Notes: a model not told the origin generated them from the letters alone. A DNA stretch of 29,517 nucleotides from an uncultured Fibrobacterota bacterium (GCA_964401455.1 CAYNYI010000026.1:1-29517); one strand, 5' to 3'. Counted from the stretch's first letter, positions 255-21,350 are shown. Made by a program: numbers and translations.

Positions 255-3020
255 GTGAAAAACAGTACCGTTTTCAGAGACTATATCAGAAAAGAATTCA
301 AAGGTTATATAAAAGCCAGAGAAAGCCGGGTTCCTTCATCTGATGTCCTGAAGGTTGATCTACATTGCCATGACCACAATTCCGACAGGCCCGAAGAAAG
401 AATAGGCCGTATCCTTAACGCGCCCGAAACCTGGCTCCCTACAGATCTCCTTATAAAAACGCTTAAAGACCATGACATTACAGCCCTCACGGTCACCAAT
501 CATAACAATGCAAGGACATGTTATGAGCTGCAGGACAAGGGGCATGATATACTGACAGCGGCTGAATTTGACTGTAATATGCCGGAATACAAGACGTGTC
601 TTCATGTTCTTACATACGGATTTACACCGGAACAGGAAAGTGTTCTGAATGTAAAAAGACAGGACATTTATGAATTTGCCGAATATACTTCCGATCAGAA
701 TCTTCCGACAGTTTTAGCTCATCCTCTTTATTTTAAGAACAGGGGTAAGATACCCGGACTGGAGATGATGGACAAACTTGGATTGATGTTTGAGAGATTT
801 GAAGTAATAAACGGGCAGCGTGATACATGGCAGAACCTTCTTGTTGCGAAATGGCTGGAAAGCATGGATGAGGAGAGTATTAACGAAACCGCTGCCCGGA
901 CCGGAATAGATCCCGGCAGATACTGCAGGAACCCATATAGAAAAACAGCATGCGGCGGGTCGGACGACCACATGGGAATTTTCGCCGGGCTGACAGGTAC
1001 CTATCTCAGTATGTCCGGACTCGACAGAATTAAAAAGGAAAAATCAAGTTCCGAAGCGCTTCTCGAGGCCCTCAGAAACGGAGAAACGATTCCTTTCGGA
1101 AACTATACCCAGAATGAAAACCTGAATATCGCCCTTCTCGATTATTTTTGTCAATGTGTCTTGAACCTTAAAGATCCCGGTCTTTTAAGAATCATGCTCC
1201 ACAAAGGAAGTGAGCAGGACAAAGTCCTCTCTTTCGCTATCGTAAACGCAGTTCATGAACTCCGCCGACATAAATATACAAGTAAATTTTTGCGTTTATT
1301 TCACCTTTCTATGCACGGCAAAAAAACCAATCTTATCGACCGGCTTATGGTTGGTAAATCAACCAGACCTCTTCTTAAAGAAATCAGCAATATCTCTTCG
1401 GTTCGAAGAAAAGATCCGAAAGATCTGCCGGAGCAGCTGATAAAATCGGTTGATAAAATATTTGAACATCTTGTGGAGCTGGCCAAAGAAAGAATATCTA
1501 AAAAAGCCTCTGCGGTAATGAATTCCAATCCGAGCGGCGAAGATTTTATGGAAATTTTTCGTAAAATTGAGCTCCCGTCTTATCTCAGAAAATTCGGAAG
1601 AGAAAAAGAAAAAGCAGGAGAAGAAAATAATGACAGCTCTGTCTCATCCGTTGATGCCGGCAGGATTCTGGACGGACTTTCCTTCCCTGTTCTTGCCGCG
1701 GGGCTTATTAATTCCGTATTTTTCGCGACAGCGAACGTGATGTATAATAAAAGATTATATCTGAATGAATTTTCCGGAAAACTGGGAAAATACCAGCAGC
1801 CGGAAAGGGTGTTATGGCTTACCGATACATTCGGTGACCATAACGGAGTATCAATGAGCCTCCGAAATATTTTGAAGGAAGTACAGGAAAAAGATTATCC
1901 CCTGGATTTTCTGGTCTGTTCGAATGATTGTCCGGAAGAGCCGCATCTGAAAGTATTCAAACCTGTCGCTGAATTCACCCTGCCGGTATATAAGAACCAG
2001 GTCTTCAGGGTCCCGAATATACCGAAAATACAGGAGTTTTTCTATAATAAAGGATATGACAGGATCATATGCTCGACCGAATTATTCATGGGGGCCGTTG
2101 CACAGTACCTGAAGCACGCTTTTAATGTTCCCGCATGGTTTTTCGTTCATACCGACTGGATGGAATTTGCCGAAAAAACAATGAAGTTCAATGATGACGA
2201 TCTTAGCAGACTGAAAAGAATGATGAGGATTTTCTATAATTCTTTCGATGGCCTTTTTGTTCTTAACTCTGAAAACCGTGACTTTTTGAGCGGGCATACC
2301 ATGAAGTTTCCCGGTGAAAAAATTCATGTTACAAAACACTGGGTAAACAGGGCCCTTTTTTATAAAAGAGAAAATGTTTCCAAAAAAGTTTTTCCCGGAG
2401 TTTCTGAGGAAGAGCAAGTTATTCTTTATACCGGCAGGATTTCACATGAAAAAGGCGTGTTTGAATTACCGGGAATATGCCGTAGAGCCGCCGAAAAATC
2501 CGGCAAGGTTAAATGCGTGATTATTGGAAAAGGGCCGGCTTTATCTGAACTTAAAAAAGCCTTCCCCGAGGGTATTTTTATTGACTGGATTCCACAGGAA
2601 AAACTTCCCGAAATGTATTCTGCCGCCGATCTTTTTGTTCTGCCGTCCACTTTCGACACTTTTGGCAGGGTCGTTCTGGAGGCCCTCAGCTGCGGCCTTC
2701 CCGTTTGCGCATATAATACCAAAGGACCGAGAGATATAATAGGATCTTCCGGCTGCGGTTTTCTGGCCGGAAATGCCGAAGAATTAAAAAACGGTTCAGC
2801 AGGTCTCTTGAGAGATGCCGAAGGTTTAAGGCATATGGGTGATCTGGCCCTTAAAAGAGCGGAGGGTTTCGAAAAAGAAAAGATTTTTCCTGAAATACTT
2901 GCCAGGACCGGTCTAACAAATTATAATAATAAAAAAAACGTTTCCGGTTATTCCCGGGTAAAAGAAGAAACCGGTAAACTTAAACAGCAAGAAGTTATCC
3001 CTGACATGATAAATGCCTGA
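255..3020 (+). CDS. Bifunctional fusion protein: N-terminal PHP-family metal-dependent phosphoesterase domain joined to a C-terminal GT4 (GT-B fold) glycosyltransferase.
   Basis: 921-aa ORF with a GTG start. The N-terminus carries PHP motifs: VDLHCHDHNSD (HxH), AEFDC, LAHPLY and GGSDDHMG (GSDxH-like). A hydrophobic linker (FPVLAAGLINSVFFATANVM) follows. The C-terminus carries the GT4 signature, including ILYTGRISHEKG and the EX7E-type motif FGRVVLEALSCGLPV. It overlaps the next ORF by 8 nt. Confidence 0.8.
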   Translation: MKNSTVFRDYIRKEFKGYIKARESRVPSSDVLKVDLHCHDHNSDRPEERIGRILNAPETWLPTDLLIKTLKDHDITALTVTNHNNARTCYELQDKGHDILTAAEFDCNMPEYKTCLHVLTYGFTPEQESVLNVKRQDIYEFAEYTSDQNLPTVLAHPLYFKNRGKIPGLEMMDKLGLMFERFEVINGQRDTWQNLLVAKWLESMDEESINETAARTGIDPGRYCRNPYRKTACGGSDDHMGIFAGLTGTYLSMSGLDRIKKEKSSSEALLEALRNGETIPFGNYTQNENLNIALLDYFCQCVLNLKDPGLLRIMLHKGSEQDKVLSFAIVNAVHELRRHKYTSKFLRLFHLSMHGKKTNLIDRLMVGKSTRPLLKEISNISSVRRKDPKDLPEQLIKSVDKIFEHLVELAKERISKKASAVMNSNPSGEDFMEIFRKIELPSYLRKFGREKEKAGEENNDSSVSSVDAGRILDGLSFPVLAAGLINSVFFATANVMYNKRLYLNEFSGKLGKYQQPERVLWLTDTFGDHNGVSMSLRNILKEVQEKDYPLDFLVCSNDCPEEPHLKVFKPVAEFTLPVYKNQVFRVPNIPKIQEFFYNKGYDRIICSTELFMGAVAQYLKHAFNVPAWFFVHTDWMEFAEKTMKFNDDDLSRLKRMMRIFYNSFDGLFVLNSENRDFLSGHTMKFPGEKIHVTKHWVNRALFYKRENVSKKVFPGVSEEEQVILYTGRISHEKGVFELPGICRRAAEKSGKVKCVIIGKGPALSELKKAFPEGIFIDWIPQEKLPEMYSAADLFVLPSTFDTFGRVVLEALSCGLPVCAYNTKGPRDIIGSSGCGFLAGNAEELKNGSAGLLRDAEGLRHMGDLALKRAEGFEKEKIFPEILARTGLTNYNNKKNVSGYSRVKEETGKLKQQEVIPDMINA

Positions 3021-4758
3021 AATTAATTCTTCGAATTCCGACCTGTATATTATCGATGGAATCGGTCCTTTTTATTCAATGGCAGGGGAGGACAAAAAAT
3101 TCAATTGGTCAAAGATTTCCTTCCCGGAGTTCGAGAAAAACGGTCTTCCCGAAAATGAAAAAGCCAGACAGATCCTGAAAGACTTTGAGTCTTTTGCCTT
3201 AAAGGTTTCTGAAATGGGCTATAATTCCGTAATTCTTGATGATCTTGCCCACCTTGCGAATTATTTTTTTTACCCTGAGTCTCTAAGGGTCCTGATTAAT
3301 TACAGACGGAAATTTTTTAAAAAAATATTCACGACGGCGGCCGAATACGGACTGAAAGTTTTTCTTACAACAGACATAATGTTCTTTAATTATTATATTG
3401 AAAATTTTACCGGTGGAAAAGACTCAAAAATATTAAAAGTGCTTCTTATGGGTTTCGCACAGATCTTTGAGGATTTTCCTGAAGTAGCGGGTTTTATTGT
3501 CCGAATAGGTGAGTCTGACGGCGTAGATGTTCAGGATGACTTTAAAAGCCGGCTTATAATAAAGGACCACAAGAAAGTCAGGAAATACCTCCGGTTCATG
3601 ATACCGCTTTTTGAAAAATATAACAAGCTTCTGATTTTCAGAACATGGACTGTAGGTGCATATCCGATAGGAGACCTGATCTGGAATAAAAAAACATTCC
3701 GCAGATGTTTTTCAGGTTTCAAAAGCTCGAATTTTATAATATCAATTAAATTTGGAGAAACGGACTTTTTCAGGTATCTGGAACTTAACCCCACTTTTTT
3801 CGAAACAGGCTGCGGAAAGATCATAGAACTCCAAAGCAGACGTGAATACGAGGGATTCGGGGAATTCTTCAGCTATACCGGGTATGATTATTGTAATTAT
3901 CGCGAAAAATTAAAAGACTGCAAAGAAATCCGCGGGATGTCGGTGTGGTGTCAGACAGGAGGATGGTCTCATTTTAACCGGTTGACTTTTCTTCAAAACT
4001 CTTCTTTATGGAACGAAATTAATACTTTCACTTCGATTAAGATATTCCGTGACGGCCTTGATTCGGAAGACTCACTCAGGGAATATTCGAAAAAGCGTTT
4101 TCCCGGAAAAGATCCGGAGCATATTGTCAGGCTGGCGGAATTATCGGACCGGGCCGTTAAAAAGATTTGGTATATGCCTGAATATTCAAGACAGAGATTT
4201 TATTTCAGGCGACTCAGGATTCCGCCGCTTATATGGGTTTTCTGGGACACAATCATAATTAACCATACAATGAGAAAAGTCCTCAGAAGGCTGATAAAGG
4301 AAGAAGATAGAAAATTGTCTATCAAGGAAGCTTTTTCCGAGCTTGAGAATATTAAAAAGATGCGATATGAGGCAGAGGAACTCGGCCTTGATACTTCAGG
4401 ATTTGACTTTATGTATGACACTTTTTTTATAATAGCGTTGGCCCGTGAATATTTTCTTGAAACATGGAACCCGGAAATAATGGAAAGAATTGACGCGGCG
4501 GTAGTAAGATACAGAGAAAAATATCCGGATGGTTTCAGGGTAGAGAAAGATTATTCGCCGTTCAGAGTTAGAAGGCTGCTGTTGAAAGCTCTTTTCTGGA
4601 TTTCGCTTCGTAAAGAAGAGAGGTACAGGTGGGTGGACCGGGTTTTTCTTATAAGAGTCTCCGGATGGATATTCAGAATTCTTACATACTGGAAAAGTCG
4701 AAATGTCCCGGCTTTCGCGAGAAAGCAGGCGATGGGAATTAATCACATTTTTAAATAG
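3013..4758 (+). CDS. Hypothetical cytoplasmic protein of 581 aa, function unrecognised. It may be a TIM-barrel glycosidase-like fold with GH-A-like motifs at the right spacing.
   Basis: Long ORF translationally coupled to its neighbours and without a signal peptide. Segments such as GFIVRIGESDGVDV and, about 120 aa later, REYEGFGEFFSYTG resemble acid/base and nucleophile strand-end motifs of clan GH-A. I cannot assign a family from the sequence alone. Confidence 0.55.
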   Translation: MPEINSSNSDLYIIDGIGPFYSMAGEDKKFNWSKISFPEFEKNGLPENEKARQILKDFESFALKVSEMGYNSVILDDLAHLANYFFYPESLRVLINYRRKFFKKIFTTAAEYGLKVFLTTDIMFFNYYIENFTGGKDSKILKVLLMGFAQIFEDFPEVAGFIVRIGESDGVDVQDDFKSRLIIKDHKKVRKYLRFMIPLFEKYNKLLIFRTWTVGAYPIGDLIWNKKTFRRCFSGFKSSNFIISIKFGETDFFRYLELNPTFFETGCGKIIELQSRREYEGFGEFFSYTGYDYCNYREKLKDCKEIRGMSVWCQTGGWSHFNRLTFLQNSSLWNEINTFTSIKIFRDGLDSEDSLREYSKKRFPGKDPEHIVRLAELSDRAVKKIWYMPEYSRQRFYFRRLRIPPLIWVFWDTIIINHTMRKVLRRLIKEEDRKLSIKEAFSELENIKKMRYEAEELGLDTSGFDFMYDTFFIIALAREYFLETWNPEIMERIDAAVVRYREKYPDGFRVEKDYSPFRVRRLLLKALFWISLRKEERYRWVDRVFLIRVSGWIFRILTYWKSRNVPAFARKQAMGINHIFK

Positions 4759-4766
4759 GGGGGCGG

Positions 4767-6086
4767 ATGGCCGATGATATTGTGAAATCATGGGTCGTAA
4801 CGGCGGACATGGGGCTCGGTCATCAGCGGGCTGTATGGCCTTTTTTAAAAAACGCGGAAGGCGGTATAATAACCCTTGAAACGGATGAGGCGACTTCGGA
4901 ATCCGAAAAGCTCCTCTGGAAAAGGGTCAGGTCTTCATACGAGTTGCTTTCGAGACTGAAGAATGTTCCACTGGCCGGAAAGAAGGCTTTTGGTATTCTC
5001 GATTATCTTTTGAATATTCCCCCTTTATATCCGATCAGGAACCGGTCTCACAGCTCTTTTCAGGTAAAATTTTTAAAGCGTCTTATAAACAAAGGCCTTT
5101 GTGAAGGCGTTTTGAAAAAGGCATCAAAAAAACCTTTGCCTTTTATGACTTCTTTTTATGCTCCGGCCATAGCCGCGGAAAACGCAGACTTTCTTAAAAT
5201 ATACTGTATAATATGTGACTCTGATTTAAACAGGGTCTGGGTGGCGGGAGACCCGTATTCAAGCAGGATAGAATACTTTGTTCCTTGCACGAGGGCGGCA
5301 AAAAGGCTTAACACATACGGTGTTCCCGACAGCCGAATTTACATCACCGGCTTTCCGCTTCCTGTAGAACTGCTCGGAGGTCCTGATCTCGGTGTCCTTA
5401 AAAAAGATCTCGGCAAAAGACTTTGCCGGCTCGATCCCGAAGGACGTTTCAGGCCTCTGCATGAGAGGAATGTAGAACATTTTCTGGGCAAAGAGAATTA
5501 TATTCCTTCATGTCCGGAACAAATTACCATAATGTTTTCTGTTGGCGGGGCCGGCGCTCAAAAAGAAATCGGAAGCGAAATAGCCCAGTCCTTCAGAGAC
5601 AAGATCCGCAACGGGAAAATCAGGCTGCTGCTTTCTGCCGGTACAAAAAGGGAAGTATATGATTATTTTCTCACGGTAAAAAAAGACATAGACCCCGGAG
5701 GGAAAGGTGTTTCGCTTATTTTTTCCGATAACCGTGAAGAATATTTCCGGATGTTCAACGAGAGGCTGCACGAAACGGATATACTCTGGACAAAACCGAG
5801 CGAACTTTCTTTTTATTCAGCGCTCGGACTTCCTGTAATAATCAGCCCTGATATCGGGCCTCAGGAGAGATATAACAAGAAGTGGCTTCTTGAGACCCAG
5901 GCCGGGCTGTTGCAGGAAGACCCGAAGTACGCGGACCAGTGGCTTACCGATCTTGTTCGCATGGGTCGTCTTGCGGAATGCGCCTGGTCGGGTTTTTTGA
6001 AGGGAAGAAAGTACGGCACCTACAGAATACTCGAGGTACTAAGCACCGGAGCCATGAAAGAGGCTGATTCCCCGCTCAGGAGGTAA
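4767..6086 (+). CDS. GT28-family glycosyltransferase of the MGDG-synthase/UgtP type; this is the more divergent of two paralogs.
   Basis: 439-aa ORF. N-terminal VVTADMGLGHQRA aligns with UgtP LILTANYGNGHVQVA. C-terminal motifs DILWTKPSELS and GPQERYNKKWL align with UgtP ITKPGGIT and PGQEKENANF. Confidence 0.7.
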   Translation: MADDIVKSWVVTADMGLGHQRAVWPFLKNAEGGIITLETDEATSESEKLLWKRVRSSYELLSRLKNVPLAGKKAFGILDYLLNIPPLYPIRNRSHSSFQVKFLKRLINKGLCEGVLKKASKKPLPFMTSFYAPAIAAENADFLKIYCIICDSDLNRVWVAGDPYSSRIEYFVPCTRAAKRLNTYGVPDSRIYITGFPLPVELLGGPDLGVLKKDLGKRLCRLDPEGRFRPLHERNVEHFLGKENYIPSCPEQITIMFSVGGAGAQKEIGSEIAQSFRDKIRNGKIRLLLSAGTKREVYDYFLTVKKDIDPGGKGVSLIFSDNREEYFRMFNERLHETDILWTKPSELSFYSALGLPVIISPDIGPQERYNKKWLLETQAGLLQEDPKYADQWLTDLVRMGRLAECAWSGFLKGRKYGTYRILEVLSTGAMKEADSPLRR

Positions 6087-6093
6087 AGGATAA

Positions 6094-7260
6094 ATGTCCG
6101 AAAAATATCTGTTTTTATATCTTAAAACCGGGGGTGGGCACCTTGCTCCCGCTAAGGCCGTTGCCGGTCATATCAAAGAATGCTCTGACAGAGAGATTGA
6201 TATTTCCCTTGTTGACGGTTTTGCCGAGGCCCCTTCTTTAATAAAAAAAATCATTGAGGACGGCTACAGTTTTTCTCAGTCCAGGGCCAAGTGGATTTTT
6301 GAATCTCTGTATGCTCTCAATAAAATTCCTCCTGTAGCGAAACTTGTCAACCTTATTGTTTCAGCGGCAGTGAAGCCCTATCTTAAAAAAGTCATCCTTG
6401 AAAACGGGCCTAAAAAGATAGTGATATTTCATTTCTTTCTTATTAAGCCCGTATTTGATATTCTTGAAGAGCAAAAAATGAAGACTCCGGTAATAACCGT
6501 AGTTACCGATCCTTACAGCGCCCATCCCATATGGTTTATTCAGAAGAAACAGAATTTTGTCGTATTCTCCGAGGACCTTAAAAGTTATTCTGCAAAGAGA
6601 AAAGTCCCTGAGGATAATGTTAAGGTCTTTCCTTTTATCGTTGACCGTAAGTTCTCGGTGAGGCCCTCCGGAGAAATGATTTCAGCTTACAGGAAAAAAC
6701 ACGGATTTTCAGAAAACGGAAGAATAATTCTTATTATCGGGGGAGGCGACGGCATCCCCCGGGGGAAATCCATTCTTAAAAAGATCCTGAAGTCCGGGAT
6801 TGATTCCGAAATCGCTATTGTATGCGGCAGGAATGAGAAATTGAAAGCACGTTCGGCAAAACTGAAAGAAAAATATAAAGCGGACAATCTTAAAATATTC
6901 GGTTTCATAGACTTTGTTCACGAACTTATCAGTATCTCTGACCTGGTGATTACAAAGTGCGGCGCTTCAACTTTTATGGAAATTCTTCTCACGGGAAAAG
7001 TTCCCCTTATAAATAATTATATATGGGAACAGGAGAAAGGAAATGTGCAGTTTGTTACCAAAAATAAAATGGGAGTTTATGAGAAAAGAGTCAGAAAAAT
7101 CCCAAAAGTCCTGAACAGTTTTTTCTCAGATTCTGAAGGTATAAAAAATTACCAGAACAACATAGACAAGGCGGGCCTTAAAAGCGGTACTGCTGAAGTC
7201 TCTGAGTATATAGTAAATTTTGATAGGGATAAGAAGAAAGATGTCGAAGGAAAAGCATGA
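6094..7260 (+). CDS. GT28-family 1,2-diacylglycerol glycosyltransferase of the MGDG-synthase/UgtP/YpfP type.
   Basis: 388-aa ORF. LYLKTGGGHLAPAKAV (G-loop), LIIGGGDG, AIVCGRNEKLK, ITKCGASTFME and EQEKGNVQF match UgtP and MGDG-synthase motifs along the whole length. Confidence 0.85.
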   Translation: MSEKYLFLYLKTGGGHLAPAKAVAGHIKECSDREIDISLVDGFAEAPSLIKKIIEDGYSFSQSRAKWIFESLYALNKIPPVAKLVNLIVSAAVKPYLKKVILENGPKKIVIFHFFLIKPVFDILEEQKMKTPVITVVTDPYSAHPIWFIQKKQNFVVFSEDLKSYSAKRKVPEDNVKVFPFIVDRKFSVRPSGEMISAYRKKHGFSENGRIILIIGGGDGIPRGKSILKKILKSGIDSEIAIVCGRNEKLKARSAKLKEKYKADNLKIFGFIDFVHELISISDLVITKCGASTFMEILLTGKVPLINNYIWEQEKGNVQFVTKNKMGVYEKRVRKIPKVLNSFFSDSEGIKNYQNNIDKAGLKSGTAEVSEYIVNFDRDKKKDVEGKA

Positions 7261-8771
7261 ATAAAATTTCAGTTATTCCCGAACCTCTAAAAACCGAGAA
7301 CAAAGAAGGGTGTTTCTTTCTCTCGAAAAACACTTCGATAGTTCTTCCCGGGGCGGTGCTCTCCCTTAAAGAGGATATTCTCTTTTGTTTTAAAAAATAT
7401 CTGAAAATAATACCGGTTTTTACAGAAAGTGAAAATGCTCTTGTATTTTCAATTGATGAAAATTTGGAAAAAGGACACTACTTTCTGGAAATGGGGCCGG
7501 AAAAGACCCTGATCAGGGCTTCAGGTGAGGAAGGGCTTCGCTACGGGCTCAAGAGCTTTATAATGGCGGCTTCGCAGTTTATAAACCCCCTTACGTCAAA
7601 AGCGGAGATTCCATGCGCCGATATTGAAGACCGCCCCTCGTTTTCCTGGCGCGGCGTTATGATGGACAGCGCCAGACATATGCAGTCTGTCGCCTGGATT
7701 AAAAAATTCATAGACACCGTCTCTCTTTATAAAATCAATTATATGCAGTGGCATCTCACCGATGACCAGGGCTGGCGGGTCGAGATGAAAAAATATCCGG
7801 CCCTTCATGAAAAGGCCTCTATACGTAAAAGAACCCTCGTCGGCCATGTTGATGAGGAACCGCTTCAGTATGATAACGAGGAGTACGGCGGTTATTATTC
7901 CCGGGACGAAATAAAGGAGATTGTCAAATATGCGTCATCAAGAGGAATCACAATTGTTCCCGAATATGATCTTCCCGGGCACTCTCAGGCAGTCCTCTCC
8001 GTTTTTCCGGAATACGGCTGTACGGGTGAGAAAACCGAAGTCCGGCAAAAGTGGGGAATCAGCAAAGATATACTTAATCCTTTTCCGGACACCATAAATT
8101 TTGCGAAAGACATTCTGGCTGAGTTCATGGAGCTTTTTCCTTCTCAATATATTCACATAGGAGGTGACGAAGCTATAAAGGACAGATGGATTAACAGTCC
8201 CCGCATACAGGAATATAAAAAGGAGCTCGGTCTTGCGGATGAAAAACAGCTGCAGTCTCATTTTATATCGGAGATTTTCGATTTTCTGAAAGAGAACGGC
8301 AAAGAGGTCATGGCCTGGGACGAAGTAATAGAGGCTGGTTTTGAAAAAGACATCATTACTTTTTCGTGGCGGGGCGACGAAGGCGGAGCGGCATCGGCAA
8401 AAAGCAAAAGGCGGGCGGTTATGGCGAATAAAGAGTTTAACTATCTTGATAAATTCCAGGAAAAGCAGGAAGATGAGCCTCTTTCCATAAACGGCCCGGT
8501 TACTCTTGAACAAACCTATTCATATTGTCCTTTTCCGGATGGGCTCAGTGAAAGTGAAAAGGAATTTATTCTCGGAGTTCAGGCGAACATCTGGACCGAA
8601 TATATAGACAGCGAATCTCATTTCGAGTACATGGCTTTTCCGAGGCTGTTGGCTATGGCCGAAAACGGTTGGTGCAAGCAGGAAAGAAAAGATTTTTCAC
8701 GTTTCAAAAAGAGCTGGGAAATCCAGAAAAAGCTGATGAGGATTGCCGGAATTAATTTTTACGGTAAATGA
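7257..8771 (+). CDS. GH20 beta-N-acetylhexosaminidase with no signal peptide, so probably cytoplasmic.
   Basis: 504-aa ORF with the classic GH20 motifs: SWRGVMMDSARH, HLTDDQGWR, PEYDLPGH and HIGGDEA. An N-terminal GH20b-like domain is present. The ATGA start overlaps the stop of the preceding gene. Confidence 0.9.
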   Translation: MNKISVIPEPLKTENKEGCFFLSKNTSIVLPGAVLSLKEDILFCFKKYLKIIPVFTESENALVFSIDENLEKGHYFLEMGPEKTLIRASGEEGLRYGLKSFIMAASQFINPLTSKAEIPCADIEDRPSFSWRGVMMDSARHMQSVAWIKKFIDTVSLYKINYMQWHLTDDQGWRVEMKKYPALHEKASIRKRTLVGHVDEEPLQYDNEEYGGYYSRDEIKEIVKYASSRGITIVPEYDLPGHSQAVLSVFPEYGCTGEKTEVRQKWGISKDILNPFPDTINFAKDILAEFMELFPSQYIHIGGDEAIKDRWINSPRIQEYKKELGLADEKQLQSHFISEIFDFLKENGKEVMAWDEVIEAGFEKDIITFSWRGDEGGAASAKSKRRAVMANKEFNYLDKFQEKQEDEPLSINGPVTLEQTYSYCPFPDGLSESEKEFILGVQANIWTEYIDSESHFEYMAFPRLLAMAENGWCKQERKDFSRFKKSWEIQKKLMRIAGINFYGK

Positions 8772-8821: not shown

Positions 8822-9674
8822 TTATTTTTCCAGGCCGGATTTTTTAAGGTAATGACTGAGTACCGCATTGCCCTTTTTTGCGGGAATGAGTTTCTCGCCG
8901 TCGGAATAACCTTCCTCCCGTCCGGAAAGTTCCTTAATCAGTCTGTCTCTCCAGATCTTTAACCTTTTTTCCCCGTTCGGGACAGAAGCCAGGTCTGTTT
9001 TCTCCTGCGGATCATTTTCAAGGTTAAAAAGCTGTTCATGTCCGTTTTCCGTAAACCAGATATATTTTTCTTTTCCATCGGTTAGAAACTGAATGGAATG
9101 ATGCCGGACTATATGTTCGCCGTGGATGTATTCGCGCCAATCGGTTTTCTCGCCTTTCGCGAGTCCGGCCGCGGAGATACCGTCAATTGAATCCGGTATT
9201 TCCTGACCCGCGAGTTCAAGCATGGTCGGCATAATATCACGAAGCTCAACCGGATTGTCGCAGAGCGCACCGCGCTTTATCCCGCTGTCTTTCGGGCCCT
9301 TGATTATGAGAGGAACGTTCGCGGAGCCTTCATAGGGAAGGTTTTTTCTGAAAAGATTATGGTCGCCCAGCATTTCTTGTTTTCGGAGCCAGGGCAGGTA
9401 GTCGTCGATTGCGTCGAGATTATCACGGTTTTTGGTGCGGGCAAAATGGAGGTATCCGACCCTTCCATGGTTTCCTTGTTTCAAACCGGTAAAAAGTCCG
9501 GTCCTTGCCGGAACGCGAGAAGGTGTAGCCGAATATGCGTTAGTGAATACCGTCCCTTCGGCGCAAATGCCGGTCAAGATAAGGCGTGTGGACAACAGGG
9601 TGGCCGAGGTGGCTGAGGCAGTCGCCGCGCCACTGATCGGCGAAAATAAAGACAACATTGGGTTTATTACTCAT
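8822..9674 (-). pseudogene. Sulfatase-family (alkaline-phosphatase superfamily) remnant that is frameshifted and degenerate.
   Basis: A genuine sulfatase N-terminus (MSNKPNVVFIFADQWRGDCLSHLGHPVVHTPYLDR) is encoded from the ATG at 9674..9672, and that frame hits a stop at 9542..9540. The remainder (ICAEGTVFTNAYSATPSRVPARTGLFTG, then PYEGSANVPLII, DIMPTMLELAG and LENDPQEKTDL) continues in the frame of the listed ORF 8822..9658. The formylglycine position of C/S-x-P-x-R reads Ala (A-T-P-S-R). About 150 aa of core, including the GKWHLG and DNG regions, is missing. The total is about 320 aa against a typical sulfatase of over 450. Confidence 0.65.
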
Positions 9675-9766: not shown

Positions 9767-9848
9767 TCTTATTATTGCTTGTAACGGCATACAGGTCTTA
9801 TTATATTAAAGCTAAGTTTTTATTTTGTTTTTTTTCAGGTGGCTATTT

Positions 9849-10385
9849 ATGAATATGAAAAAAGCGTTATTTGTGTCGGGGTTTCTTTTTGTTTTGAACT
9901 TTACTTCTTATGGATTAAATGCGAGAACTGTAAACGGAAACTCCTGGACCGGTGATGTCGCCGTAAAAAACGAGATTATGAGAGTAAAAGTCCACCCTTC
10001 ATATCTTGACATTGAGGCTGAAATTTCCTTAAAAGCCCATACTCCGAACGCACAAGTTCCGGACCCGTCGCTTCCTCTTGAAATACATGGAAATTTCATT
10101 CTGCCTGAGAACAGCGTTATTTCCGGAGCGCTTTTATGGAACGGAAACACGATCCTTCAGGCAAAACTTAAATCAAAGGAGACGGCGACAATGGAATATG
10201 AGGACGTTGTTGACCGTCAGCCCGCTCCCCCGCCGAGGCCGAGAGACCCCATGATAATTGAAAAATTATCCGGGGATACATATAATCTAATGATTTATCC
10301 CTTTTCCCGCGGCCAGTACCGCAAAATAAGAATTCGGTACATTGTCCCCAGAATTTTTCCAACGGTACAGTCGAAAACCAGATAA
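9849..10385 (+). CDS. N-terminal fragment of a secreted protein: Sec signal peptide plus a VIT (vault inter-alpha-trypsin) domain. It is probably the 5' part of one gene interrupted by a frameshift.
   Basis: The start is preferred at the ATG 9849 (MNMKKALFVSGFLFVLNFTSYGLNA) because an AGGTGG SD lies 6 nt upstream; the track's 9825 start lacks one. VIT-like motifs include HGNFILPENSVISGALLWNGNTI, EYEDVVDR, DPMIIEKLSGDTYNLMIYPFSRGQYRKIRIRY. The ORF ends at a TAA just after an A-run. Confidence 0.6.
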   Translation: MNMKKALFVSGFLFVLNFTSYGLNARTVNGNSWTGDVAVKNEIMRVKVHPSYLDIEAEISLKAHTPNAQVPDPSLPLEIHGNFILPENSVISGALLWNGNTILQAKLKSKETATMEYEDVVDRQPAPPPRPRDPMIIEKLSGDTYNLMIYPFSRGQYRKIRIRYIVPRIFPTVQSKTR

Positions 10386-10423
10386 GCAGCCTGGCCCATA
10401 TTTTTAATATTGAAGAAAGTCTG

Positions 10424-11887
10424 ATGCCCGAAAATTTCCTCCTGGAGCTCGGATCGGGAGACGGAGGAGAAGAAATAGACAGAGTCAGGCTCCGGGCGGG
10501 CGGAAGCTTTTTTACTTATTATCTGCCGTCCAATATTTTCGCCGACTATTCGGTGTCAAAATATTATCTGAGTGTGCCCGGTCTCGGGCAAAAGGCGATT
10601 ACCCAGGCCTCAGAAATAAAGACATCTGTTTATGATCTTACCGCCGCGGGTGCCGATGTGGGCATGCTGCTTGATAAGGGTGACACTAATTATACCGAGT
10701 TTGCCCCGACAAAACCGGGCGAGAGGAAGTTTGACGATATGGTCCGGTTTTTATCAAATATAGATGAAGGGTATCTGCTGAGCAATATAGCCGGCAATGA
10801 ATTTGAAAATCCGCCGGGATCGTCCAACCATAAAAAATACCGTGAAGAGCGGGCGGCAGAATTTAAAATCAGTATTGAGAGGACATTTTCTCTTCTTTCC
10901 GAGGATGAGAAAATACTTAAACATATTGTAATTCTTACTGTCGGGCCTAAATTTACATCTGAGACGATTGAAAATGATTTCAGCCATTTTGAAGACCCTG
11001 AAATAAACGGAGTCAGTATATCGTCATATTTTAATACCCGGGAGGGTTCCGGTTACTGGCCCGGTGTACCTCTTTTTGAAATTCAGAAAACTTATCCTGT
11101 TCTTGATTCTTCCTACAAATCAGGAAGATTTTTGGTGCCTGCTTTCCGCAAGGCAAATTTTAATGTAAAAGTTTCCAATGCTTCAAAATCTTACAATTAT
11201 AACCTGGTCATGGAATCGAGCGGCGGCCGTCCAATTCCTCCTAAATTCAGCTTTCTCGGCCACAGCATCTCAAGGTGGGATACGGATATTGAATGGAAGG
11301 CTTTGGACGTTTACGGTGAAGAAATAGCCTCCTATACCCAGAGTCCGGATGTTTACAGGACTTCCAACGACACCGGACTGGTTAAAATGTGGGCTGGTTC
11401 GGACCTGGCCTTCAGTGAAATATTCAATTATGGCGGATTGGGCCCTGTCTATGGAATCGTTACGGAGGATTATTCTCTATTAGCTCTTGAAGAAGATTCT
11501 GTAAGCGCGGAATTGCAGGAAGCTCTGAGCGATTCCGGTGTGCCGATGCTTACTGATGATGAGATTTTTGTCCTTGAAACGGATACCGCGACGAGCAGCA
11601 TAGAGAAAGAATCCCCCGGTATATCTGCCGCGCCGTATTTGGCCGTAAGCCCGAACCCCTTTAATCCGGTAACCCGCATAGCTTTCAATACTAAAAAAGA
11701 CGGTTTTGTCCTTCTGGAGATATATGACCTTTCAGGAAGGCTTGTGGCAACAGTGATGGACCGTTATCTTAAAAAAGGCGAGCATAGCGTCATGTTCAGC
11801 GGCGCTTCGCTTCCCAGCGGAATTTTCGTCTGCAGACTGAAAACCGGGTCGGGAATAAGAACGGCAAGGATGATGCTGATGAAGTAA
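10424..11887 (+). CDS. C-terminal part of a T9SS substrate protein ending in a type-A Por/T9SS C-terminal sorting domain. It has no signal peptide of its own.
   Basis: The C-terminal 80 aa (SPNPFNPVTRIAFN...LLEIYDLSGRLVATV...GIFVCRLKTGSGIRTARMMLMK) form a canonical T9SS CTD. This reading frame is open from 10286, upstream of the first ATG, and there reads continuously as protein (…NQISSLAHIFNIEESLMPENFLLELG…). A strong terminator follows. Confidence 0.6.
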   Translation: MPENFLLELGSGDGGEEIDRVRLRAGGSFFTYYLPSNIFADYSVSKYYLSVPGLGQKAITQASEIKTSVYDLTAAGADVGMLLDKGDTNYTEFAPTKPGERKFDDMVRFLSNIDEGYLLSNIAGNEFENPPGSSNHKKYREERAAEFKISIERTFSLLSEDEKILKHIVILTVGPKFTSETIENDFSHFEDPEINGVSISSYFNTREGSGYWPGVPLFEIQKTYPVLDSSYKSGRFLVPAFRKANFNVKVSNASKSYNYNLVMESSGGRPIPPKFSFLGHSISRWDTDIEWKALDVYGEEIASYTQSPDVYRTSNDTGLVKMWAGSDLAFSEIFNYGGLGPVYGIVTEDYSLLALEEDSVSAELQEALSDSGVPMLTDDEIFVLETDTATSSIEKESPGISAAPYLAVSPNPFNPVTRIAFNTKKDGFVLLEIYDLSGRLVATVMDRYLKKGEHSVMFSGASLPSGIFVCRLKTGSGIRTARMMLMK

Positions 11888-16302: not shown

Positions 16303-16707
16303 TTGGCATTTAAATTTTCTCTGAACAGCTCTTCCGGAGTTCCTTATTACCGGCAGATAGTTAATCAGGTAACTTACGGAGTGGTTAACAGCATCTTTGA
16401 GCCGGGCGAGCGTCTTCCGACCGTGCGGCAACTGGCGGTGGACCTTCAGGTAAACCTGAATACCGTTTCAAAAGCCTATACAGAACTCGAATTAAAAGGA
16501 ATAGTCAATACCCAGCAGGGGACCGGGACATTTATTTCAGAGAATAAGGTGCGTATCGATCCTAAAACGAAAGAAAAAGGGCTCCGCCAGCTATGTCTGA
16601 ATTTTTTGAATGAAACCGCGGCGCTCGGTATAAAAGCAGAAGACTCACTTAAAGAATTAAAGAAAATAGAATCCGAAAGAAAAAGAAACCCGCACAAAGG
16701 AAATTGA
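16303..16707 (+). CDS. GntR-family transcriptional regulator of the short YtrA-like subfamily.
   Basis: 134-aa ORF with a TTG start. The winged HTH LPTVRQLAVDLQVNLNTVSKAYTELELKGIVNTQQGTGTFIS is the canonical GntR N-terminal domain. A short C-terminal helix follows. The stop overlaps the next gene. Confidence 0.85.
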   Translation: MAFKFSLNSSSGVPYYRQIVNQVTYGVVNSIFEPGERLPTVRQLAVDLQVNLNTVSKAYTELELKGIVNTQQGTGTFISENKVRIDPKTKEKGLRQLCLNFLNETAALGIKAEDSLKELKKIESERKRNPHKGN

Positions 16708-16709
16708 AA

Positions 16710-17675
16710 ATGGCTGAAAAAATACGGGAATTCAAAGAAAGAAGAGAATTTAATCCGGTTACCTGGAATATTCGGAAGGCATTGTTCTCGCTGAAGCGTT
16801 ATTCACTCAATGTGATGTTTTTCCTCCTTGCCGGGGCCTTAATTTACTTTCTAAGAAACCGTCTTGTATTAAACAGATCTGCGGAAACGGCGCTGTATAT
16901 TGTTTCCGGTTTATTTGTTATTTTGGGGTTTTCCGTAAGGACCGCTTTCGAATGGGAGAGGGTTCCCCTTTTGCGCCTGGGAAAATTCAGAAAAGCGAGT
17001 GGTCCGGGAATCTTTTTTCTAATACCTTTTGTTGATATCCCTTGCGGTTATGTTGACTGCCGCATAACCGTTACAGACTTCAGCGCCGAGAAAGTCTTAA
17101 CCAAAGACGCTGTTCCGATATATGTGGATGCGATAATTTTCTGGATGATCTGGGACGCTTCAAAGGCCAGGCTTGAAGTGGAGAATTATAAAAACGCCGT
17201 TCCTTTGAGCGCAAAAACGGCATTGCGGGACATCATAGGAAAAACCACCCTGGCGGAATTGCTTACGGGACGGGATGAAATCGGATCAGAGCTCCAGAAG
17301 ATACTCGATGACAAAACAAATCCCTGGGGAATAACCTCTCTTTCTGTTGAAATAAAAGATATCGTTATTCCCGAAGAACTTGAAGACGCTATCAGTAAAG
17401 AGGCCCAGGCGGAAAGAGAAAAAAACGCGAGAATAATTCTCGGGTCGGCCGAGGTCGAGCTTTCTGAGAAGTATTCTGAGGCATCCGAAAAATACAAGGG
17501 AAATGACGAAGCGCTTACTCTTCGTTCATTAAATCTGCTTCTTGAGACGCTGAAAAGCAAAGGGTCCATGATTCTGGTTCCTTCGGAGACGCCGCATGTG
17601 ATGAATAAAGCGCTTTCGGCCGCATTGGCCCGAAAGGCAGGTAATGATGCTGCAACCCCGCAAGCCGATATATAA
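16710..17675 (+). CDS. SPFH/band-7 (stomatin/prohibitin-like) membrane protein.
   Basis: Two N-terminal transmembrane helices, then an SPFH core (ERVPLLRLGKFRKASGPGIFFLIPFVD…VTDFSAEKVLTKDAVPIYVDAIIFW…LRDIIGKTTLAELLTGRDEIGSELQKILDDKTNPWGI…VEIKDIVIPEELEDAISKEAQAEREKNARI) and a coiled-coil tail. The ATG at 16710 has an AAGGAAA SD. The track's TTG at 16704 is less likely. Confidence 0.85.
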   Translation: MAEKIREFKERREFNPVTWNIRKALFSLKRYSLNVMFFLLAGALIYFLRNRLVLNRSAETALYIVSGLFVILGFSVRTAFEWERVPLLRLGKFRKASGPGIFFLIPFVDIPCGYVDCRITVTDFSAEKVLTKDAVPIYVDAIIFWMIWDASKARLEVENYKNAVPLSAKTALRDIIGKTTLAELLTGRDEIGSELQKILDDKTNPWGITSLSVEIKDIVIPEELEDAISKEAQAEREKNARIILGSAEVELSEKYSEASEKYKGNDEALTLRSLNLLLETLKSKGSMILVPSETPHVMNKALSAALARKAGNDAATPQADI

Positions 17676-17698
17676 ATTTTTAAAACGGAGGCCTTAAA

Positions 17699-20593
17699 AT
17701 GAGGCAGAAAATTTTCAGAAAAATCGGAGACCTTGTGACTTCCCGCCCGGGAGGGATACTTGTTTTCAGTTTTATTTTAACTATTCTTATGGTTCTGGCC
17801 GCAGCGCGCATCAGTTTCAAGACTCAGATAGCCGACATGATGCCGGAGGAACTGCCGCAGGTCAATGAATTGATGGAAATTATAGAGGACTACCAGAGTG
17901 AGTCCACGGTGATGATCACTGTAGAGAGCGAAAAGAAAGATATTGAAGCGATGAAAAAGTGCGCCGATGAGCTTTCCGGAAAACTGAAGAAAATCCGGAG
18001 GATAAAACCTGCGAATCCGGAGAAACTTTCGCTGATTCAGAAGATCAATTCAGCCAAGGGTGTTTTCCCGCTGGCCGGAGTAGAATATGATACTGTAGAT
18101 CTTGTTAAACGTGTTGATTATAAAATCGACAATGACTTCATTGAGTCGCATGCCATGATGATTCAGAAAACAAAAGATCTTCGTAATATGGTCTCGATGT
18201 ATAAAAGCGTGGCTCTTCCCGAGCTTGTGGAAAATATAAACAACAGTTTCGAGAAAGAATTCATTGACGACTCGGAAAACATGACAACTCTCGACGGCGA
18301 AAACCAGGCCGTCCAGGGCCTTGAGAGTATGCGCAAATTCATGGCAGGGATAAAGGAGTATATAGAGGAATCGGATTCCGCCGGAGCGGCACGTTCGGTT
18401 GAGAACCTTTTGACAGGCTCGGAATATATGCTCTCTCCTGATAATAAAATGCTTATGATGGTACTTCGCCCCGCTGTAAGTTTCAATCATTTTGAAGATA
18501 TGATGTATCTTGGATACCGTATTGATGATACTCTTTCGACGGTAATGAAAAAATACCCTGATCTTGAAATCGGGCGGACCGGGGCGATGATGCTTCAGAT
18601 AGACGAGAATAAGGCTCTCGAGAAAGACTTCAGTATTCCGAGTGTTATCGCGCTTATTCTGATACTGATTATACTGATAGGTTCATTCCGGACGTGGAAA
18701 AACCCGTTTTATTCTGTTTTTACACTGATTATTTCGATAATTTGGGTCACAGGGCTTCTCGGCATAGTTCTGCAATACCTTAATATGATGTCCGCGGGTT
18801 TCGGTATAGTTCTTATCGGCCTCGGAATAGACTTCGGAATACATTTTATTTCAGGATTCAAGGACGGCCGCGAGCAGGGGAAAAGTGCAGTCGATTCCAT
18901 ATATTATATGTATAACCGCGTTGGCAGCGGAGTGATTACGGGCGGAATGACAACGGCGATAGTTTTTCTAAGCCTCCCTCTTACCCGTTTCGAGGCATAT
19001 TCACAGATGGGAATAGCGATGGGGCTTGGAATAATCACGACCCTTTTTGCCATGCTGATTTTACTTCCGGCCCTTATAATGTGGGACAACAAAGGCTACA
19101 GCCTTGCCGGCAACTTTTTTCGGAAAGCCGGGCTTGGCTTTATTCCTTCTGTCTGGAATACTGTTGATAAAACTGTCGGTAAAATAATACCGAAGAAACT
19201 GTTGCGTTCATTATCTGCTCCGCTTCAGTTCGGATTTCTGGACTCAATTGGTTTTGCCATAAAAAAAATGCCCGTAGCCGTTCTAATACTATTGATTTCC
19301 GCAGTTATTACGGTTTTATCTATAATCGGAGGCTTTAACCTGGATTTCGAATATGATATGATGGAGCTTCAGCCCAAGGGCACTTTGAGCGCTGTTACTC
19401 AGGATAAAATCATTGATAAGTTTGAAATCTCACCGGATCAGGCAATGATAAAAGCCCCGGGAATAGATCGGTGCAGAGAAATGGTTGAAAAATATAAAAA
19501 AATCGGAAACCGGACAGGTCTTATCGGAAGAGTGGACGCAATCACCGAGTTTCTGCCGGAAGAAGAAGTTCAGCGTGAGAACGCGGCGTTTATAAAAGAT
19601 TTTAAGCTGAAGTTCAAAAAAGTGGACCCTGTTCCGGTGCTGGACGATGAAGATTCAGAGAAACTTGTCACCGAATTGAGGAGGTTTCATAAGAATATTG
19701 TAGAAATCGGGGAACTCTCTGTGCTGAGTATGGGGCAGAAAAATAAAATTATAAGAAAATGCGACCAGATAGCAGGTAAAAAGGATGAAGATTCTTTTGT
19801 GCTGCAGCTTGCCTCGTTGATTGAAAAATACCCGCAGTCTTCCAGGCAGGTTAACGGCTATCAGCGAATCGCCGGGCCTGTAATGAAGGAAAAAGTCCTT
19901 GAAATGACTTCTACAGATATTGTAACTCTCGAAAAACTCCCGGAGACTATAAAAGAAAGATATGTAAACCCTAACAATGACGAGTTATTAATAACTGTGT
20001 ATCCGAAGTCATATATATGGAATGAAAAAAATCTGCACAGGTTTAACAAGATGACAGCAAGAGTTTCCGAAAGAATCACGGGGATGCCGGTTATTATGCA
20101 GCTTATGATGGACCTGATGGGAAAAAAAGGAAAACAGGCGGTTTTAATAGGGGCTTTGGCAATTGCTTTGTTCCTGCTTTTTGACTTCCGCTCAATGAGA
20201 TACACCATCCTTGCCGCCGTACCGCTCGCGGCGGGTTCGGCCTGGATGTTCGGGCTTATGTATATCTTCGGTGTAAAGCTGAGCATGATGAATTTTATCG
20301 CGCTCCCGCTTATTATAGGTATCGGGATAGACGATGGAGTGCATATGCTGCACCGATACAGGATTGAGGGGCCGGGTTCCGTTCCGATCGTCCTTAAATA
20401 TACGGGAAGGGCGACTCTTTTGACTTCGCTTACAACTATGATAGGTTTCGGTTCGATGGGACTGGCTTCCCATAAAGGTATTGCGGTACTCGGGCAGACA
20501 TTGTTTTTCGGGGTCGGTTCCTGCTTTTTGAGCTCGGCTTTCATGCTGCCGGCAATCCTTACTATTATGGAAAAATTTCAGAAAAAAAATTAA
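17699..20593 (+). CDS. MMPL/RND-superfamily exporter (COG1033, HpnN-like) with two 6-TM bundles and two large periplasmic domains.
   Basis: 964-aa ORF with a duplicated architecture of N-terminal TM, periplasmic domain and TM cluster. The TM clusters span about residues 310-460 (LILIILIGSFRTW…GIDFGIHFISGF…) and 800-960 (…LPLIIGIGIDDGVHMLHRYR…), typical of MMPL/SSD-type RND proteins. A GGAGG SD lies 7 nt upstream. Confidence 0.8.
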   Translation: MRQKIFRKIGDLVTSRPGGILVFSFILTILMVLAAARISFKTQIADMMPEELPQVNELMEIIEDYQSESTVMITVESEKKDIEAMKKCADELSGKLKKIRRIKPANPEKLSLIQKINSAKGVFPLAGVEYDTVDLVKRVDYKIDNDFIESHAMMIQKTKDLRNMVSMYKSVALPELVENINNSFEKEFIDDSENMTTLDGENQAVQGLESMRKFMAGIKEYIEESDSAGAARSVENLLTGSEYMLSPDNKMLMMVLRPAVSFNHFEDMMYLGYRIDDTLSTVMKKYPDLEIGRTGAMMLQIDENKALEKDFSIPSVIALILILIILIGSFRTWKNPFYSVFTLIISIIWVTGLLGIVLQYLNMMSAGFGIVLIGLGIDFGIHFISGFKDGREQGKSAVDSIYYMYNRVGSGVITGGMTTAIVFLSLPLTRFEAYSQMGIAMGLGIITTLFAMLILLPALIMWDNKGYSLAGNFFRKAGLGFIPSVWNTVDKTVGKIIPKKLLRSLSAPLQFGFLDSIGFAIKKMPVAVLILLISAVITVLSIIGGFNLDFEYDMMELQPKGTLSAVTQDKIIDKFEISPDQAMIKAPGIDRCREMVEKYKKIGNRTGLIGRVDAITEFLPEEEVQRENAAFIKDFKLKFKKVDPVPVLDDEDSEKLVTELRRFHKNIVEIGELSVLSMGQKNKIIRKCDQIAGKKDEDSFVLQLASLIEKYPQSSRQVNGYQRIAGPVMKEKVLEMTSTDIVTLEKLPETIKERYVNPNNDELLITVYPKSYIWNEKNLHRFNKMTARVSERITGMPVIMQLMMDLMGKKGKQAVLIGALAIALFLLFDFRSMRYTILAAVPLAAGSAWMFGLMYIFGVKLSMMNFIALPLIIGIGIDDGVHMLHRYRIEGPGSVPIVLKYTGRATLLTSLTTMIGFGSMGLASHKGIAVLGQTLFFGVGSCFLSSAFMLPAILTIMEKFQKKN

Positions 20594-20612
20594 TCAATAT
20601 AAGGAGGAAACC

Positions 20613-21350
20613 ATGATAAAAACATTTATGATTGTACTGGGTATTTTAGCGGGGCCGGTTTTTTCCATAACAGCCGATGAAATACTCGACAAAATGGAGA
20701 AAAATGAAAACGCGCAAACCTCTAAGAGCACTGTAAAGCAGACGGTATATAATACAGACGGCAGTAAAAATGTTTCAAAGCTTCTAAACTATTCTTTTAA
20801 TGAAGGCGAAAAGGCGCTCATAGAATATATATCTCCCGCGCGAATAGAGGGAATGAAAATACTCACGCTTAACGACGGCGACGATATATGGTTTTATTCT
20901 CCCCGGACCGCCCGTGTAAGAAAAATAGCCAGCCATCAGAAGAACCAGTCGGTAAACGGATCCGACTTTTCCTATGAGGATTTGTCAACAGGAGACAGAA
21001 GAGAAGATTATGACGCTTCTCTGGACGGTGAAAAAGAAATAAGGGATACAGACTGCTACAAAGTTATTATGAAGGCAAAGAATGAGGATGAAACCTACAG
21101 CAAGATTGTGTTTTATGTCGATAAGGAAAAATTTATAGGAATAGAGGGACATTTTCATGATGAATTCGGAGAATTATGGAAAAAACTGATAATGAAAGAC
21201 ATTGAAAAGATCGGAAAATACTGGACGCCGGAATACATCGAGATGAAAAATGTTTTAAAGGGCTCCCGGACTGTTATGGAAATGGAAAATATTGAATATG
21301 ATATTGATCTTGATGAATCCATGTTTTCCACAAGGTTTTTGAAAAGATAA
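20613..21350 (+). CDS. Periplasmic LolA-like protein of the 'outer-membrane lipoprotein-sorting protein' family. Its length fits the ~250-aa LolA-like (PF17131) family.
   Basis: 245-aa ORF with an SPI signal peptide (MIKTFMIVLGILAGPVFSITADE) and no lipobox Cys. The beta-rich sequence with GSDFSYEDL and YKVIMKAKNEDETYSKIVFYVDKEKFIGIEG segments matches my recollection of the LolA-like family often found beside COG1033 exporters. An AAGGAGG SD is present. Confidence 0.55.
   Translation: MIKTFMIVLGILAGPVFSITADEILDKMEKNENAQTSKSTVKQTVYNTDGSKNVSKLLNYSFNEGEKALIEYISPARIEGMKILTLNDGDDIWFYSPRTARVRKIASHQKNQSVNGSDFSYEDLSTGDRREDYDASLDGEKEIRDTDCYKVIMKAKNEDETYSKIVFYVDKEKFIGIEGHFHDEFGELWKKLIMKDIEKIGKYWTPEYIEMKNVLKGSRTVMEMENIEYDIDLDESMFSTRFLKR

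Follow-up and report, generated by a model that had tools for sequence, protein, structure and literature searches.

What do five tightly packed genes at the beginning of a Fibrobacterota contig do together, and do they belong to a single pathway at all? The contig, part of a metagenome-assembled genome, is 29,517 bp long and was analyzed in full (the window); the genes, here termed g1 to g5, fill positions 255–8771 of its + strand. Our answer, to which we assign a probability of roughly 55%, is that the operon combines two modules for diacylglycerol (DAG) glycolipids with a GH20 hydrolase, where the first module is a variant of the PlcP–Agt lipid renovation pathway. The substrates and reactions proposed below are those that we infer from the domain identities, the conservation of catalytic residues and the pairing of genes across phyla. 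The five genes are:

g1: 255–3020, + strand, 921 amino acids (aa), GTG start; PHP-type phosphoesterase, hydrophobic linker and Agt-like glycosyltransferase of family GT4
g2: 3013–4758, + strand, 581 aa; predicted cytoplasmic GH67-like α-uronidase with a TIM barrel, a helical domain and a conserved basic C-terminal tail
g3: 4767–6086, + strand, 439 aa; DUF6938 protein with a GT-B fold nearest to monogalactosyldiacylglycerol (MGDG) synthase
g4: 6094–7260, + strand, 388 aa; predicted GT28 diacylglycerol glycosyltransferase of the MGDG-synthase/UgtP type
g5: 7257–8771, + strand, 504 aa; cytoplasmic GH20 β-N-acetylhexosaminidase

The open reading frame (ORF) calls reproduce the five + strand genes of the original prediction, made from the sequence of this contig, including their coordinates and the overlaps at 3013/3020 and 7257/7260. 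The genes g1 and g2 overlap by 8 nt, g2 and g3 are separated by 8 nt, g3 and g4 by 7 nt, and g4 and g5 overlap by 4 nt; these junctions (−8, +8, +7 and −4 nt) imply co-transcription and translational coupling. The region 255–8771 is thus a genuine, tightly coupled operon-like block. Scans for promoters and terminators in this sequence were uninformative, yielding counts close to the shuffle expectation. A signal-like hydrophobic stretch at the amino terminus was absent from all five proteins.

We analyzed the conservation of the gene order by fetching 80 species-level loci with g2 homologs and searching them by tblastn with all five window proteins, with 10 kb taken as the neighborhood. Homologs of g2 are present in at least 582 GTDB species representatives, spread over Fibrobacterota, Verrucomicrobiota, Kiritimatiellia, Victivallales, Spirochaetota, Planctomycetota, Desulfuromonadales, Desulfobulbus, Acidobacteriota and Leucothrix. 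In 46 of the 80 loci the 10-kb neighborhood of g2 contains an Agt-like GT4, mostly directly adjoining and co-directional, and the pairing recurs in Fibrobacterota, Verrucomicrobiota, Kiritimatiellia, Spirochaetota, Desulfuromonadales and Planctomycetota. The partner is a PHP–GT4 fusion like g1 (770–920 aa) in 34 loci, a GT4 of ~470 aa beside a Metallophos gene of ~277 aa in eight, and a GT4 alone, with no phosphoesterase found, in four; the flanks are short in 16 further loci. Across the same 80 loci, homologs of g4 and g5 were never found beside g2, and a g3 homolog only once.

In further Fibrobacterota genomes g1 and g2 form a two-gene unit. The g3 homologs of Ignavibacteria are 57–59% identical and all 439 aa long; in every case an MGDG_synth/GT28 gene comes 5 nt downstream, and neither g1 nor g2 nor a GH20 gene was found near these pairs. 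The five-gene order itself was present in none of the ~90 related loci examined. The operon is therefore a composite of module A (g1 and g2) and module B (g3 and g4), each conserved independently, together with the GH20 gene. The original prediction had read the five genes as one glycolipid cluster and had named the absence of this gene order from relatives as a counterargument, and the neighborhood comparison does not support the five-gene unit; its suggestion that GT28 and GT4 act in succession, as MGD1 and DGD1 do in plants, finds no backing either, as the two glycosyltransferase modules occur independently. Both modules are co-located in two Fibrobacterota genomes, with differing architectures. 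In the second of these (locus L024, 2491–7041), an 836-aa fusion of a GT21 (HpnI/Pgt-like) domain with DUF6938 lies divergent from a PHP–GT4 gene and g2, indicating that DUF6938 pairs with different lipid glycosyltransferases. The fusion is flanked by a distant LpxH/PlcP-like Metallophos gene, located 3′ of it, and by a 335-aa gene of no assigned family.

A link of module A to lipids comes from the glycosyltransferase half of g1:

GT4 domain, Agt/GTcp type: 1815–2894, + strand, aa 521–880; Pfam Glycos_transf_1 at 97 bits

The DAG-dependent Agt/GTcp clade is characterized by the motifs GRVAxEKN and FPSxTDTFG, the latter with Asp in place of the signature Glu, and by a His–Asp dyad (PMC8231724). 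In g1 the corresponding motifs are GRISHEKG and PSTFDTFG, where Asp likewise replaces the GT4 signature Glu; residues H632, D801 and E809 are conserved, with H632 aligning to the His of Agt2. Among the 44 GT4 partners of g2 that we compared, PSxxDTFG was found in 39 and PSxxDTLG in one, the remaining four having Glu at that position, and GR[VIL]xxEKN is also present in most of them. Reference genes for PlcP, Agt1 and Agt2 were recovered from Pseudomonas aeruginosa and Sinorhizobium meliloti records in a plasmid collection, the P. aeruginosa set comprising PA0842 (Agt2), downstream of plcH–plcR, and PA3219 (PlcP) with PA3218 (Agt1), upstream of cyaB. Experiments in P. aeruginosa established that Agt2 makes glucuronosyl-DAG (GlcA-DAG) and Agt1 glucosyl-DAG (Glc-DAG), and that PA3219 is a phospholipase (PMC8528852). 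Of the 44 partner GT4s, 42 score better against Agt2 than against Agt1, and three from Verrucomicrobiales are 45–47% identical to Agt2. The g1 domain itself aligns to Agt2 with 27% identity over 294 aa at 94 bits, compared with at most 54 bits for any GT4 in the PDB. Assignments of this domain to BshA (bacillithiol synthesis) or to glycogen synthase were discarded, the best NCBIfam and PDB matches reaching 53–68 bits, far under the cutoffs and lower than Agt2.

The gene context of g2 in other phyla resembles the known pathway, as described for PlcP of S. meliloti, Agt of A. tumefaciens, PB7211_983/960 of SAR11 and PA3219, PA3218 and PA0842 of P. aeruginosa. Shared with it are a phosphoesterase and a GT4 of the Agt/GTcp clade. 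The Metallophos gene that adjoins g2 in Kiritimatiellia shares 55–56% identity with PA3219 and with PlcP of S. meliloti, and judged by its sequence this partner is a true PlcP; within Verrucomicrobiota and Kiritimatiellia the g2 family thus adjoins a genuine PlcP (56%) as well as an Agt2-like GT4 (up to 47%). Furthermore, some g2 loci adjoin pst, phoU, alkaline phosphatase or UDP-glucose dehydrogenase genes. UDP-glucose 6-dehydrogenase, the enzyme making UDP-glucuronic acid (UDP-GlcA; UDP, uridine diphosphate), is encoded next to four g2 loci, and ~9 of the 80 have pst, phoU or phoH-like genes in the 10-kb neighborhood. The spirochaete operon closest to g1 of the window contains this dehydrogenase and sits between pstCAB–phoU and an alkaline phosphatase gene. 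The window differs from the described pathway in several respects. Its cluster has no Metallophos (LpxH-like PlcP) gene and contains at the equivalent place a PHP-type domain, which bears no relation to the Metallophos fold that PlcP adopts and which a hydrophobic linker joins to the GT4; this GT4 shares just 27–28% identity with Agt1 and Agt2, the window shows no link to a Pho regulon, and the GH67-like g2 is a third conserved component without counterpart in the pathway as described.

The amino-terminal half and the linker of g1 comprise two further features:

Putative PHP-type metallophosphoesterase domain: 351–1088, + strand, aa 33–278; metal-ligand set with weak family matches
Hydrophobic linker segment containing Pro and Gly: 1665–1745, + strand, aa 471–497; Kyte–Doolittle value of 1.69 over 19 aa

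No Pfam family matched the amino-terminal half, and its sole family match was to the NCBIfam CehA/McbA (PHP-type) model, weakly so with 25–28 bits (cutoff 80). Searching the PDB with a profile built from this domain likewise yielded weak matches to the PHP proteins 3e0f and 2anu (E 0.09–0.2). The residues D35, H37, H39, H83, E104, H117, H156, D237, D238 and H239 are invariant in 33 homologous fusions and match the set of metal ligands that is typical of PHP proteins (HxH, H, E, H, H, DxH). When 1.84 billion representatives were searched exhaustively with HMMER, only 659 relatives of the domain emerged, of which the full-length ones are nearly all 700–920 aa long, indicating that the family is almost confined to GT4 fusions. 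A comparable, moderately hydrophobic segment is present in the linker of most PHP–GT4 fusions, and it is a probable membrane anchor.

One and the same position is occupied by either the PHP domain or PlcP, with GT4s of one clade and members of the g2 family as shared neighbors, which points to a non-homologous replacement. By analogy, the PHP domain may supply DAG, acting as a phospholipase C or else as a phosphatidate phosphatase. A role as a DAG-generating stand-in for PlcP appears more likely than the editing of a phosphorylated headgroup that had been suggested for this phosphoesterase. Literature searches for a PHP-type phospholipase in lipid remodeling retrieved none. One locus (L099, 7686–15545, GCA_016718115.1) encodes a 916-aa g1 homolog with an MMPL transporter directly after it and, before it with a 4-nt overlap, a 772-aa protein. 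The latter matches nothing in Pfam or the PDB, is not similar to g2 and may be an alternative partner in place of the GH67-like enzyme.

The second component of module A had been listed as an unknown 581-aa protein. This holds in so far as g2 has no Pfam or NCBIfam match, but structure and profile comparisons place it as a distant GH67-like α-uronidase. Nine of 26 relatives weakly match PF07488 (Glyco_hydro_67M), the best with an E-value of 9e-6. The AlphaFold2 model, calculated with 26 homologs, reached a predicted local distance difference test (pLDDT) score of 84 and a predicted template modeling (TM) score of 0.87, and it combines a (β/α)8 barrel at residues ~10–320 with a helical domain and with a basic tail that is disordered yet conserved. 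Foldseek retrieved GH67 α-glucuronidase first (E 1.4e-12, TM-score 0.52–0.57), followed by GH138 α-galacturonidase (5.5e-10) and then by GH84, GH89 and GH20 (~1e-6). Sequence and profile matches of g2 in the PDB, to a nuclear receptor and to ribosomal proteins, were discarded as spurious.

We next take Glu285 to be the catalytic acid of GH67 and Asp364 and Glu392 to be its bases (G. stearothermophilus numbering). Four GH67 genes were retrieved for an alignment whose positions were checked against 1k9d, where residues 275–305 read FGGFVVKADSEFRPGP..., so that Glu285 falls within the KADSE motif. Aligning the g2 family to GH67 with hhalign (E 8.5e-4, 222 columns, probability 24%) yielded the following correspondences:

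g2 R164: GH67 K281
g2 E167/D169: GH67 D283/E285, the acid loop
g2 R210: the Arg of GH67 'WR'
g2 K246/D251: GH67 'IKNGPxDF' (Asp364)
g2 E272/Q274/E278/Y279: GH67 'ExQIxQEY' (Glu392)

All aligned g2 residues are invariant in the 26-sequence alignment, as are all of their counterparts in the GH67 alignment, and the predicted catalytic residues of g2 are E167/D169, D251 and E278. The catalytic acid of GH67 resides on a mobile loop (PMC3879575), consistent with the low-confidence loop 168–174 of the g2 model. Compared with G. stearothermophilus AguA (1k9d) and C. japonicus GlcA67A (1gql), g2 keeps the TIM barrel and the helical domain. It lacks their N-terminal β-sandwich, shares only ~11–15% identity, has D169 at the acid position with E167 two residues upstream, adds the conserved basic C-terminal tail and has as genomic neighbors glycolipid synthases, not xylan-utilization genes. 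As it lacks the N-terminal domain and stays below the Pfam threshold, g2 represents a new GH67-related family and not a member of GH67. The last residues (~550–581; 4660–4758) contain an almost invariant peptide, P566...FAxxQAMGIxxLFK, which is predicted to be disordered (pLDDT < 50) and could be a docking or membrane-binding motif.

Module B was analyzed likewise. The g4 protein matches the Pfam families MGDG_synth (45.6 bits, cutoff 25) and Glyco_tran_28_C (39.9 bits, cutoff 22), and its PDB matches include Arabidopsis MGD1 (E 6e-27) and a processive DAG β-glucosyltransferase (E 7e-20). It aligns over its full length with UgtP and MGD1, members of the GT28 DAG glycosyltransferases known from plants (MGD1), Bacillus and Staphylococcus (UgtP/YpfP) and Chlorobaculum (MgdA). 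Against the NCBIfam equivalog model of UgtP, the diglucosyl-DAG synthase, g4 scored 136.8 bits at a cutoff of 500, so it is no UgtP ortholog. MurG was not among the matches of g4 at E ≤ 0.01, in line with the earlier assignment to the MGDG-synthase type and not to MurG-like enzymes. The claim of two GT28 enzymes holds by sequence for g4, whereas g3 is GT28 only at the level of the fold: its sole domain match is DUF6938, with none to MGDG_synth or Glyco_tran_28_C, although it adopts an MGD1-like GT-B fold and keeps the GxGH motif. Module B differs from the known systems in that g3 belongs to the uncharacterized DUF6938 family, and an obligate pair of DUF6938 and GT28 is undescribed; literature searches for a paper on DUF6938 found none. 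Together, the MGD1-type match of g4 and the two published Agt/GTcp motifs in the GT4 of g1 bear out the DAG-glycolipid reading of the cluster put forward in the original prediction. At three Ignavibacteria loci (L087, L088 and L095) the DUF6938–GT28 pair has a divergent transporter gene of the major facilitator superfamily upstream and a PF00756 esterase gene and a DinB_2 gene downstream, which may represent an extended conserved neighborhood.

The fifth gene encodes a full-length GH20 enzyme (Pfam GH20 at 348 bits, cutoff 22.3, plus GH20b) with the catalytic motif HIGGDE and BT0459 as best PDB match (E 2.6e-109). An exact-sequence lookup of g5 returned nothing on record. Its GH20b–GH20 architecture and HIGGDE motif are the same as in BT0459 and Am0868, from which g5 differs by lacking a signal peptide and by its translational coupling to a lipid glycosyltransferase gene. 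The earlier call of a signal-less GH20 enzyme is therefore confirmed. The tie of g5 to lipids consists of its operon position in this one genome, and the accompanying idea of an N-acetylhexosamine (HexNAc) headgroup loses ground, as it rests solely on a GH20 gene that is conserved with neither module.

In the mechanism we propose for module A, the PHP domain of g1 would liberate DAG at the inner membrane face, with a phospholipid or phosphatidate as its substrate, and the fused GT4 would transfer GlcA, or Glc, from the UDP-sugar onto it. Because GT4 is a retaining family, the product would be α-linked, that is α-GlcA-DAG or α-Glc-DAG. GH67-type enzymes are inverting α-uronidases, and g2 would accordingly be expected to split α-GlcA-DAG into DAG and glucuronate, serving turnover, homeostasis or reversal. 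Hydrolases co-encoded with a synthase have precedent in polysaccharide operons (BcsZ, PslG, PelA), and a hydrolase beside its own synthase suggests homeostasis or editing, or else post-translational control of g2. Within module B, g4, being of the MGD1/UgtP type, would provide a β-glycosyl-DAG branch, with g3 acting as a second glycosyltransferase or as an obligate partner of g4. The g5 enzyme might trim a β-HexNAc headgroup, a speculation by which it would mirror g2, or might serve plain amino-sugar catabolism. A stronger version of this scheme has the g2 family as the first glycolipid-specific α-glucuronidase, a GlcA-DAG hydrolase that reverses or tunes phosphate-sparing renovation in at least six phyla, and the PHP domain as a new and non-homologous type of phospholipase or phosphatidate phosphatase that generates DAG and passes it directly to the fused GT4; taken as a whole we put this forward tentatively, considering it rather doubtful that both parts hold.

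Several points weigh against the composite lipid reading. A synthase and a hydrolase within one coupled operon suggest a futile cycle unless g2 is regulated, and we know of no PHP enzyme that acts as a phospholipase C or phosphatidate phosphatase. Of all GT4s in the set, g1 is the most divergent, with 94 bits to Agt2 and 81 bits to Agt1, and its motifs GRISHEKG and PSTFDTFG deviate from the consensus. Genes for pst, phoU, alkaline phosphatase or UDP-glucose dehydrogenase are absent from the window. No GT4 was found within 10 kb in 18 of the 80 g2 loci despite full flanks, and the neighbors at loci without GT4 are unrelated, with no consistent partner. For g2 itself, the acid position is taken by an Asp or a shifted Glu at an hhalign probability of only 24%, and its model opens with barrel strand 1 at residue 11, the N-terminal domain of GH67 being absent. 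Finally, GH20 accompanies neither module A nor module B elsewhere.

Three other explanations were weighed, all of which we consider less likely than the composite lipid reading. The product of module A might be not a lipid but a soluble glycoside, for instance a compatible solute, made by a GT4 of the sucrose-phosphate-synthase type, dephosphorylated by the PHP domain and hydrolyzed by g2 to adjust the pool size. The synthesis of sucrose and of mannosylfructose usually relies on a GT4 together with a phosphatase, the usual activity of PHP enzymes is that of a phosphomonoesterase, and g1 weakly matches sucrose-phosphate-synthase-like PDB chains (~34 bits). However, in other phyla the phosphoesterase slot is taken by true orthologs of PlcP, which share 56% identity with a phospholipase C of validated function, together with Agt2-like GT4s; the GT4s carry the DAG-dependent Agt/GTcp motifs, the hydrophobic linker segment is conserved, and the 94 bits of the g1 GT4 to Agt2 contrast with ≤54 bits to soluble-acceptor GT4s in the PDB, which makes a soluble product improbable. 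We regard it as similarly improbable that g2 is a catabolic α-glucuronidase debranching xylan by acting on imported plant aldouronic acids, with the glycosyltransferase neighbors being incidental. Such a role would suit an organism of the polysaccharide-degrading Fibrobacterota with GH4 and GH20 genes nearby, as well as the GH67-like fold and catalytic residues of g2, and GH67 enzymes attack glucurono-xylooligosaccharides in exo fashion, either inside the cell or in association with it (PMC3879575). Yet the pairing of g2 with Agt-like GT4s recurs across six taxa, the g2 loci inspected showed no genes for xylanases, xylosidases or sugar transporters, and g2 lacks the GH67 N-terminal domain and stays under the Pfam GH67 threshold.

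The remaining explanation concerns the operon as a whole, namely a lineage-specific juxtaposition in which module A, module B and a GH20 enzyme of chitobiose or amino-sugar catabolism share a promoter and not a pathway. In its favor, the five-gene order is seen on this contig only, with g1–g2 and g3–g4 occurring alone elsewhere and without GH20. The junctions of −8, +8, +7 and −4 nt argue for co-transcription and translational coupling instead, a glycosyltransferase containing DUF6938 also adjoins PHP–GT4 and g2 at L024, albeit in another architecture, and both modules are predicted to act on DAG. We therefore consider the juxtaposition unlikely, although it is the least improbable of the three.

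Further genes surround the operon in the window. Directly after g5 lies a convergent ORF:

Arylsulfatase-like ORF: 8822–9658, − strand, 278 aa

It aligns to positions 25–68 and 307–485 of an arylsulfatase profile of ~486 aa, and the presence of the N- and C-terminal parts only suggests an internal deletion or a pseudogene. On the + strand at 9825–11887, a 186-aa ORF with a VIT domain is followed by a 487-aa protein with a C-terminal sorting domain of the type IX secretion system, and the two may be one disrupted secreted protein. The + strand region 16303–22631, ~8 kb downstream of the cluster, encodes a GntR regulator, an SPFH/Band-7 protein, an HpnN/BstA-like HAE3/MMPL transporter of the RND superfamily, a LolA-like protein and a 418-aa protein of no assigned family. 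The transporter scores 313 bits against TIGR03480, which is under the cutoff. This region is a putative lipid-export operon and could move non-phosphorus lipids to the outer membrane.

When phosphorus is scarce, the exchange of phospholipids for glycolipids is one of the major ways in which bacteria respond, both in the oceans and in pathogens such as P. aeruginosa, and to our knowledge the forward enzymes PlcP and Agt are the only ones known for this swap. While the PlcP–Agt pathway is thus already established, the PHP–Agt fusion, the GH67-like third component and the DUF6938–GT28 pair appear to be undescribed in the literature searched, in which a GlcA-DAG glucuronidase was not found either. 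The predictions can be tested directly in cultured carriers such as Malonomonas rubra, Desulfuromusa kysingii and Pontiella. Two large uncharacterized families would obtain a functional context, namely the g2 family, present in at least 582 species and without a Pfam entry, and DUF6938. A conserved hydrolase beside PlcP and Agt would point to removal or balancing of the surrogate lipid, and the PHP–GT4 fusion would extend the pathway to phyla for which it had no prior description, Fibrobacterota, Spirochaetota, Kiritimatiellia and Desulfuromonadales, and would give the PHP superfamily a new activity.

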